Positions 56,307 to 56,645 of a DNA stretch of 64,000 bases are shown here, piece by piece. The notes below the pieces were generated by a model that saw only the letters and a list, made by a program, of their open reading frames with translations, was not told the DNA's origin and searched no databases. The stretch's first letter is position 1. Every line of letters begins with the position of its first letter. The position numbers were made by a program, and so were the translations under genes. The stretch is taken from the NCBI GenBank assembly GCA_000091205.1, contig AP006500.2. The stretch is one strand, 5' to 3'. The stretch comes from Cyanidioschyzon merolae (Eukaryota).

Positions 56307-56645
56307 AGTAGCAGTACCAGTAGCAGTAGCACCAGTAGCAGTAGCACCAGCACCAGTAGCTCCCATAGAACATTCGCCTCTAGCAGTAACACCAGCACCG
56401 GTAGCTCCCATAGAACATTCGCCTCTAGCAGTAGCACCAGCACCAGTAGCTCCCACAGAACATACGCCTCTAGCAGTAGCACCAGCACCAGAAGCTCCGA
56501 TAGAACATTCGCCTCTAGCAGTAACACCAGCACCGGTAGCTCCCATAGAACATTCGCCTCTAGCAGTCGGAGCAGCACCAGTAGCTCCCATAGAACATTC
56601 GCCTCTAGTAGTCGGAGCAGCACCGGCGGCGGCGGCGGCGGCGAC
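56307..56645. repeat. Composite repeat: an (AGTAGC/ACCAGT)n hexamer run, then six in-frame copies of a 45-bp unit, then (GGC)7.
   Basis: 45-bp unit ccagtagctcccatagaacattcgcctctagcagtagcaccagca at about 56347-56620. It reads as [15 protein letters not shown] on the plus strand, or GATGAG(A/V)TARGECSM on the minus strand within the 147-aa ORF 56220-56663. It lies 160-500 bp upstream of the KARI ATG. Confidence 0.8.

Follow-up and report, generated by a model that had tools for sequence, protein, structure and literature searches.

The divergent spacer between CMR119C and the ketol-acid reductoisomerase gene (KARI) of Cyanidioschyzon merolae contains a compound array in which 45-bp, 15/6-bp, and triplet repeats lie side by side. 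This array is likely to be a non-coding, hypervariable minisatellite/VNTR situated upstream of the KARI core promoter, and the minus-strand open reading frame (ORF) that runs through it is most likely spurious. The original prediction had allowed two readings of the locus, either a gene for a small repetitive Gly/Ala/Thr-rich protein or a coding-like minisatellite embedded in a bidirectional promoter. The second, with the promoter region taken as divergent, is supported by the position of the array, its copy-number variation among natural alleles, and its absence from relatives, whereas the small protein gene is disfavored.

The repeat array and its neighbors

The window, i.e. the whole stretch of 64,000 nucleotides that was analyzed, is part of chromosome 18 of C. 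merolae 10D and carries about one intronless gene per 3.4 kb. The array is found between CMR119C and KARI, in a divergent spacer of 2.85 kb, and the features of the locus are as follows.

52959..53960, minus strand: CMR119C, a CCT-domain protein identical to BAM82380.1, the divergent neighbor
56220..56663, minus strand: 147-codon ATG ORF crossing all three repeats, from ATG to stop
56306..56360, (GGTGCTACTGCTACT)n on the minus strand: degenerate 15-bp/6-bp sub-repeat (Tandem Repeats Finder periods 6, 15, and 21)
56336..56624, no strand: 45-bp minisatellite, 6.4 copies in strain 10D (Tandem Repeats Finder); minus-strand consensus of the unit GGTGCTGGTGCTACTGCTAGAGGCGAATGTTCTATGGGAGCTACT
56624..56648, no strand: (CGG)n/(GCC)n microsatellite (Tandem Repeats Finder period 3, 8.3 copies)
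56735..56746, plus strand: KARI mRNA 5' ends, from the ends of RNA-derived contigs
56811..58514, plus strand: KARI, plastid-type ketol-acid reductoisomerase of 567 aa (Pfam KARI_N and KARI_C)
59305-59916, minus strand: RPL13A, identical to BAM82382.1

The naming of the neighboring gene as KARI was correct, with both Pfam domains present and the product identical to BAM82381.1 / XP_005538417.1 of C. merolae 10D. The entries BAM82380-82382 are consecutive on a 1.25-Mb record, and the GenBank, RefSeq, and EukProt numbers all run consecutively. Because of these consecutive accession numbers, and because the 147-aa sequence is missing from a collection of 15 billion proteins, it can be concluded that the 10D reference annotation has no gene in the 2.85-kb spacer. 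In the literature, the locus tags CMR119C-122C are not mentioned and non-telomeric minisatellites of C. merolae are not described.

Tandem Repeats Finder reported the 45-bp unit with 91% matches, 0% indels, and a score of 473. A 22-mer derived from the unit, with up to 2 mismatches allowed, gave six matches spaced exactly 45 bp apart, compared with 0 matches in 100 dinucleotide-preserving shuffles, so that the proposed six copies with an exact 45-bp period and no indels are borne out. The same scan found no further copy of the unit within the window outside the array. All six units of 10D are mutually distinct, with 10 variant sites among them. The span originally given, 56307-56645, is wider than the minisatellite itself (56336-56624), as it includes the sub-repeat and the triplet run. 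The latter had been described as (GGC)7, which needs correction: the CGG run of 10D consists of six perfect triplets, then CGA, then CGG or, in the GGC register, of a perfect run of six triplets followed by GAC and one GGC. An assembly artifact was ruled out, as at least 10 independent assemblies contain the array in addition to the finished 10D sequence. Searches for structured RNA gave no Rfam match at E<=1 in 53900-56900.

On the minus strand, the 45-bp unit reads GGTGCT GGTGCT ACTGCT, then AGAGGCGAATGTTCTATGGGA, then GCTACT. It is thus composed of 24 nt of (GGT/GCT/ACT)n material of the type shared with the adjacent 15-mer, which is present in three copies in 10D (Tandem Repeats Finder), and of a unique 21-nt insert. 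The array may have started, in the C. merolae lineage, as a triplet-based (GGT/GCT/ACT)n low-complexity tract beside (GCC)n, and the 15/6-bp sub-repeat is the putative seed of the 45-mer. Such a tract would have gained the 21-nt insert, after which the 45-bp segment, made up of 24 nt of tract and the insert, would have been amplified, and units at the 3-, 15-, and 45-bp levels would now be gained and lost by replication slippage or unequal exchange.

Other repeats can also be seen in the window. A minisatellite at 20432-20770 (85 bp, 4.0 copies, 87% matches) lies just upstream of an ORF at 20765-22273, and another at 46136-46395 (58 bp, 4.5 copies, 97% matches) lies between convergent ORFs. 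A perfect (GCT)15.7 run at 42895-42941, located ~230 bp upstream of the ATG of a 546-aa ORF (43174-44814), falls within both a 209-codon minus-strand ATG ORF encoding poly-Ser and a 141-codon plus-strand ORF encoding poly-Leu, and is another triplet repeat that gives rise to long ORFs.

Variation among natural alleles and comparison with related genera

To collect natural alleles, JGI metagenome contigs were scanned with the unit 22-mer, and further contigs were obtained through look-ups with KARI, RPL13a, and an allele fragment. The 22-mer scan returned four metagenome contigs, all four of which map to the KARI locus, with flanks 98.5-99.1% identical to 10D. In total, eight distinct DNA alleles were recovered, carrying 6, 5, 5, 5, 4, 4, 4, and 3 of the 45-bp units, GCC runs of 5-13, and two to three 15-mers; the unit counts are taken from short-read assemblies and are possibly collapsed, and the GCC-run lengths and unit orders are more reliable. 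The alleles are listed below.

10D: 6 units, GCC run of 6 (8 triplets including a GTC interruption), ORF of 147 aa
L005/L007/L009/L011: 5 units, GCC run of 8, ORF of 132 aa
L006: 5 units, GCC run of 8, ORF of 132 aa
L013: 5 units, GCC run of 8, ORF of 132 aa
L010/L016 (one extra 15-mer): 4 units, GCC run of 11, ORF of 125 aa
L008/L014: 4 units, GCC run of 13, ORF of 122 aa
L017: 4 units, GCC run of 8, ORF of 117 aa
L039/L040: 3 units, GCC run of 5, ORF of 99 aa

Across these alleles, 33 units represent 14 distinct sequences, and the order of the variants differs in each allele. Short-read contigs L019-L022 stop at the array, as expected for a repeat. An RNA-derived contig, L037, is 21 nt shorter than 10D in the 15/6-bp sub-repeat. 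The array therefore behaves as a VNTR in which all three nested repeats vary. Its unit falls within the 10-100 bp range and is arranged head to tail with interspersed variants, its copy number is polymorphic between conserved flanks (as judged from short-read assemblies), and the unit is confined to a single locus both within the window and in the metagenome scan. Known minisatellite/VNTR loci share these head-to-tail units, interspersed variants, and copy-number differences between flanks that are ~99% identical, as well as raised variation in the immediate flank and occurrence at a single locus rather than as a dispersed family. The array differs from them in being compound, nested with an independently varying 15/6-bp sub-repeat and GCC microsatellite, and in its location in an unusually compact, repeat-poor algal genome. 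It is a further instance of a well-known kind of sequence.

When 10D was compared with the L017/L037 lineage, 5 substitutions were found in the 90 nt of the non-repeat ORF tail (56220-56310), and 15 (~1.3%) in the next 1150 nt beyond it. The variable tail fits either a mutational hot spot beside the minisatellite or diversifying selection.

The locus was compared with that of Cyanidiococcus yangmingshanensis (L004) and of a related metagenome-assembled genome (MAG) together with its metagenome contigs (L001-L003). KARI is 93% identical to the 10D protein in C. yangmingshanensis (over the matched part) and 86% in the MAG. In both relatives the order of the CCT-domain gene, KARI, and RPL13a is kept, with a spacer of ~1.8 kb, and no 45-bp repeat was found in the spacer between the CCT-domain gene and KARI. 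Neither relative gave a tblastn match to any of the three long array ORFs. The only non-genic DNA shared with the relatives is a 70-bp block, close to the promoter of CMR119C, and a (CGG)7 in C. yangmingshanensis. On this comparison, the array appears to be restricted to the C. merolae lineage. A comparison of the orthologous locus for conservation of one reading frame had been proposed as a check on the coding reading; the related genera keep the gene order without the array.

The (CGG)7 of C. yangmingshanensis (L004 7394-7415) is placed much like the C. merolae run, at ~110 bp from the KARI ATG on its upstream side, and the flanks of the two runs do not align; the runs could represent a common promoter feature or be of independent origin. 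It was also noted that the KARI model of this species in VWRR01000003.1 (L004 8001-9116) is only 371 aa in length and begins inside the gene. The full ORF starts near L004 7526, and a 570-aa model exists in another assembly (KAK4529663.1), so the 371-aa model is probably a truncated annotation.

The minus-strand ORF as a probable by-product of the repeat

As originally described, a minus-strand ORF with an ATG start and a stop extends over 56220-56663, encoding a leader followed by repeats, and the plus-strand frame likewise reads as claimed. The repeats of the ORF product take the form GA(G/A)(A/V/P)T(A/T)RG(E/V)CS(M/I/V)GA(T/S). If genuine, the ORF would be a young orphan or de novo gene specific to C. 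merolae. The KARI promoter would drive its divergent transcription, and its product would be a small protein, disordered and rich in Gly, Ala, and Thr, in which each 15-residue repeat has one Cys and the number of repeats varies among strains, as in yeast cell-surface genes with in-frame minisatellites. This alternative is considered improbable; the most likely explanation of the ORF is that it arises as a by-product of the repeat and is not an established gene.

In favor of a gene, the ORF is unbroken in all eight alleles (99-147 aa), and among the open frames of the array it is the only one with an ATG start. Its integrity nevertheless says little, as divergence among the alleles is only ~1% and their length changes are multiples of the unit length. 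Since all unit lengths are multiples of 3 and four of the six frames have no stops, long open frames are unavoidable and cannot be broken by changes in length; from base composition, ~3.3 of the six frames would be expected to be open across the array, compared with the four observed. The 45-bp period is not in itself evidence of coding, as one of the three minisatellites of the window (periods 45, 85, and 58) has a period that is a multiple of 3, as would occur by chance. The in-frame property is therefore no sign of selection for coding and follows from the proposed triplet-based origin (3, 15, and 45).

The pattern of substitution was then used to examine the ORF for protein-level constraint. 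The 33 units contain 13 variant sites, distributed 5/4/4 over the three codon positions, with 3 synonymous and 10 non-synonymous changes, and unit variants give no synonymous excess in any other frame of the array either. In the non-repeat ORF tail, 1 synonymous and 4 non-synonymous changes were found, and the leader has one non-synonymous change. Random mutation of the ORF is expected to give 72% non-synonymous changes. On the same contigs, KARI has 9 synonymous and 2 non-synonymous changes (codon positions 0/1/10) and RPL13a has 3 and 0, so that 13 of the 14 changes in these control genes are at third positions. The difference between the ORF (4 synonymous to 15 non-synonymous) and KARI plus RPL13a (12 to 2) is significant by Fisher's exact test (p=3.6e-4). 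Purifying selection was thus not detected in the ORF, and protein-level constraint on it is absent. The small Gly/Ala/Thr-rich protein gene of the original prediction is disfavored by this result together with the atypical codons described below. The non-synonymous-rich tail could be credited to the orphan gene as diversifying selection.

Codon usage also sets the ORF apart. Its GC3 is 0.27, its codon adaptation index (CAI) is 0.56, and its codon log-likelihood is negative, placing it far outside the 12 genes of the window (GC3 0.56-0.67, CAI 0.69-0.82). The unit relies on the least-used codons, namely ACT (13% of Thr), GCT (19% of Ala), AGA (5% of Arg), and TCT (9% of Ser), and the ORF does not have genome-like codon usage. 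No clear Kozak consensus could be seen among the 12 window genes. A start at the ORF ATG, ~80 bp from the KARI 5' ends, would have the geometry typical of bidirectional promoters, but any transcript starting upstream of an out-of-frame ATG at 56700 would meet that codon first.

Homologues of the ORF product were sought in several ways. A word-indexed protein search gave no match. A full HMMER search of 1.84 billion representative proteins gave no true homologue, the one related sequence being an allele fragment (P0160); of the other 58 hits, down to E=0.001, six were inspected (P0161-P0165 and P0168) and all are unrelated periodic repeats. The hits P0161-P0168, with E values reaching 1e-26, were accordingly rejected as compositional or periodic artifacts, with repeats such as GAVSVGEVNI, LGENT, SRGGT, WGATS, and GLGAT. 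Exact look-ups of the 147-aa ORF and of six allele products found none of them in the protein collection, and, as gene callers had predicted some of these products on metagenome contigs, the negative results of the look-ups and of the word-indexed search bear only on more distant relatives and not on near-identical alleles. Pfam returned sub-threshold matches to the ORFs only (GETHR, E=0.099; Extensin_1, 16 bits against a cut-off of 105), and no signal peptide or recognizable domain could be seen in the ORF by eye. The syntenic loci of L001 and L004 are likewise without the ORF. An orphan gene would therefore have to be one without homologues in these databases or at the syntenic loci of related genera, and unannotated in 10D.

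Part of the ORF is found in L037, a contig from a JGI data set with the behavior of an RNA assembly. This contig covers 55069-56519 (L037 1-1430), comprising the ORF tail, four units, and 1.15 kb past the ORF stop; an 89-aa ORF at 55437-55706 was found in L037 and in two DNA contigs only. The original prediction had named two observations that would speak against a gene. One, the lack of third-position bias among the repeat copies, was made here; the other, the absence of a transcript from either strand, was not cleanly made, given the extent of L037. The spacer region is probably transcribed on at least one strand, and the contig suggests an unannotated transcript over 55069-56519. Its coverage of part of the ORF counts in favor of the orphan gene, although the RNA may come from either strand.

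A signal-peptide-like segment, MTPRRVVARIIMCAIAILFSSLVAASDC, lies in frame ahead of the repeats in L037 and raises the alternative that the array is the decayed remnant of a gene for a secreted repeat protein. This segment is, however, part of a Euglena mutabilis-like PAP_fibrillin mRNA, and the encoded protein clusters with an E. mutabilis transcript. An independent contig, L038, has the same 3' region without the repeats, and the two contigs part exactly at the junction. Given that L038 is without repeats, that the divergence falls at the junction, and that the segment has a PAP_fibrillin identity, L037 is a chimeric assembly, and a signal peptide before the repeats was ruled out. As the metagenome scan also gave no paralogous copy of the unit, with every hit at this locus, a decayed remnant is highly improbable.

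The in-frame coding minisatellites of yeast cell-surface genes (FLO/adhesin repeats) are among the closest known systems, and the array has in common with them a unit that is a multiple of 3, an ORF that is kept through repeat changes, and a Thr/Ala/Gly-rich product. Unlike those repeats, the array ORF has no signal peptide, homologues, annotation, or synonymous bias, and its codons are atypical. C. merolae has no cell wall. A variant of the orphan-gene reading would have a newborn gene arising from a triplet minisatellite beside a bidirectional promoter, with a hypervariable Cys-containing product and with codons and substitutions that look neutral owing to its youth. This is regarded as quite improbable, and a non-coding minisatellite carrying a spurious ORF remains the preferred explanation.

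Position relative to the KARI promoter and significance

The 5' ends of KARI mRNA were located from RNA-derived contigs. L024 and L025 begin at 56746 and 56745, respectively, L023 has Illumina adapter sequence directly against 56735, and the chimeric RNA-derived contig L012 has its junction at 56745. Relative to these ends the array region extends from -97 to -440 and is thus upstream of the transcript, with the triplet run at approximately -97 to -121 and the 45-mers at approximately -121 to -409. The array therefore adjoins the KARI core promoter, directly upstream of it.

These data also bear on whether the plus-strand, Ser/Thr-rich frame of the array could be translated as a long, transit-peptide-like extension at the N-terminus of KARI. 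No stop interrupts the KARI frame over 56271-58511 (plus strand, 747 codons from stop to stop), which runs through the whole array, and JGI gene callers carried KARI to the contig end on L019-L022. The 180 upstream codons, however, contain no ATG (none before 56811), the mRNA 5' end falls downstream of the array according to all four independent ends of RNA contigs, a plausible transit peptide is already obtained from the annotated start, and the extension is not present in relatives. Given the RNA 5' ends at 56735-56746 and the absent ATG, the extension is in effect refuted, and its probability is almost negligible.

At the other end of the spacer, CMR119C RNA contigs have their 5' ends at 53971-54023. 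A block of ~70 bp at 54081-54149 (L001 6252-6320; L004 6184-6256), ~60-130 bp upstream of these ends, is 80-83% identical across three cyanidiophyte genera, and the intergenic DNA around it is otherwise unalignable across the three. The block contains GCCACGTGTC, with a CACGTG G-box/E-box, and CAAGATCGCCAC. From its conservation and its position upstream of the CMR119C 5' ends, it is probably a conserved promoter element.

The array lies in the location expected of a functional tandem repeat in a promoter (-97 to -440 from the KARI RNA 5' ends). It may therefore be asked whether the array and (CGG)n act in cis, with copy number tuning the expression of KARI, CMR119C, or both through the number of putative factor sites, spacing, or nucleosome occupancy. 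Such a role is compatible with the non-coding minisatellite reading, to which it would add a putative function, and it is considered unlikely. It draws on the position of the array, on the differences between natural alleles, and on the (CGG)7 that Cyanidiococcus has at a similar distance upstream of KARI. Set against this, relatives express the same conserved gene without the array, the sequence of the unit is not conserved above neutral, and the CGG run of Cyanidiococcus could be independent in origin. Any effect of the array on promoter spacing or on KARI expression would be an addition to what the anatomy, alleles, and codons of the locus record.

Tandem repeats in yeast promoters are said to be unstable and to alter expression. 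The array resembles them in being strain-variable and in lying no more than ~450 bp upstream of the transcript start, and differs from them in having a unit longer than most and a moderate GC content rather than AT richness. Promoter-proximal CGG/GCC microsatellites offer a second comparison, as they share with the array a variable (CGG)n, here of 5-13 triplets, ~100 bp upstream of the transcript start; unlike them, the C. merolae run is short and lies upstream of the mapped 5' ends, not in the 5' UTR.

As a non-coding VNTR, the array is biologically minor. With its three nested repeats, it offers a hypervariable marker for distinguishing strains and natural populations of C. merolae, among which divergence is otherwise only ~1%. 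It is also a caution for annotators, in that ATG ORFs running through triplet-based repeats of the C. merolae genome are not evidence of genes; automatic callers chose two different frames at the array, the Gly/Ala/Thr frame on three metagenome contigs and a Leu-rich frame with a GTG start on two. The locus is, in addition, a tractable case in which to ask whether a housekeeping biosynthetic gene is tuned by the length of a repeat in its promoter, as C. merolae permits editing by homologous recombination. If the ORF were an orphan gene after all, it would represent the birth of a gene from a minisatellite, caught in the act, in one of the most streamlined eukaryotic genomes.
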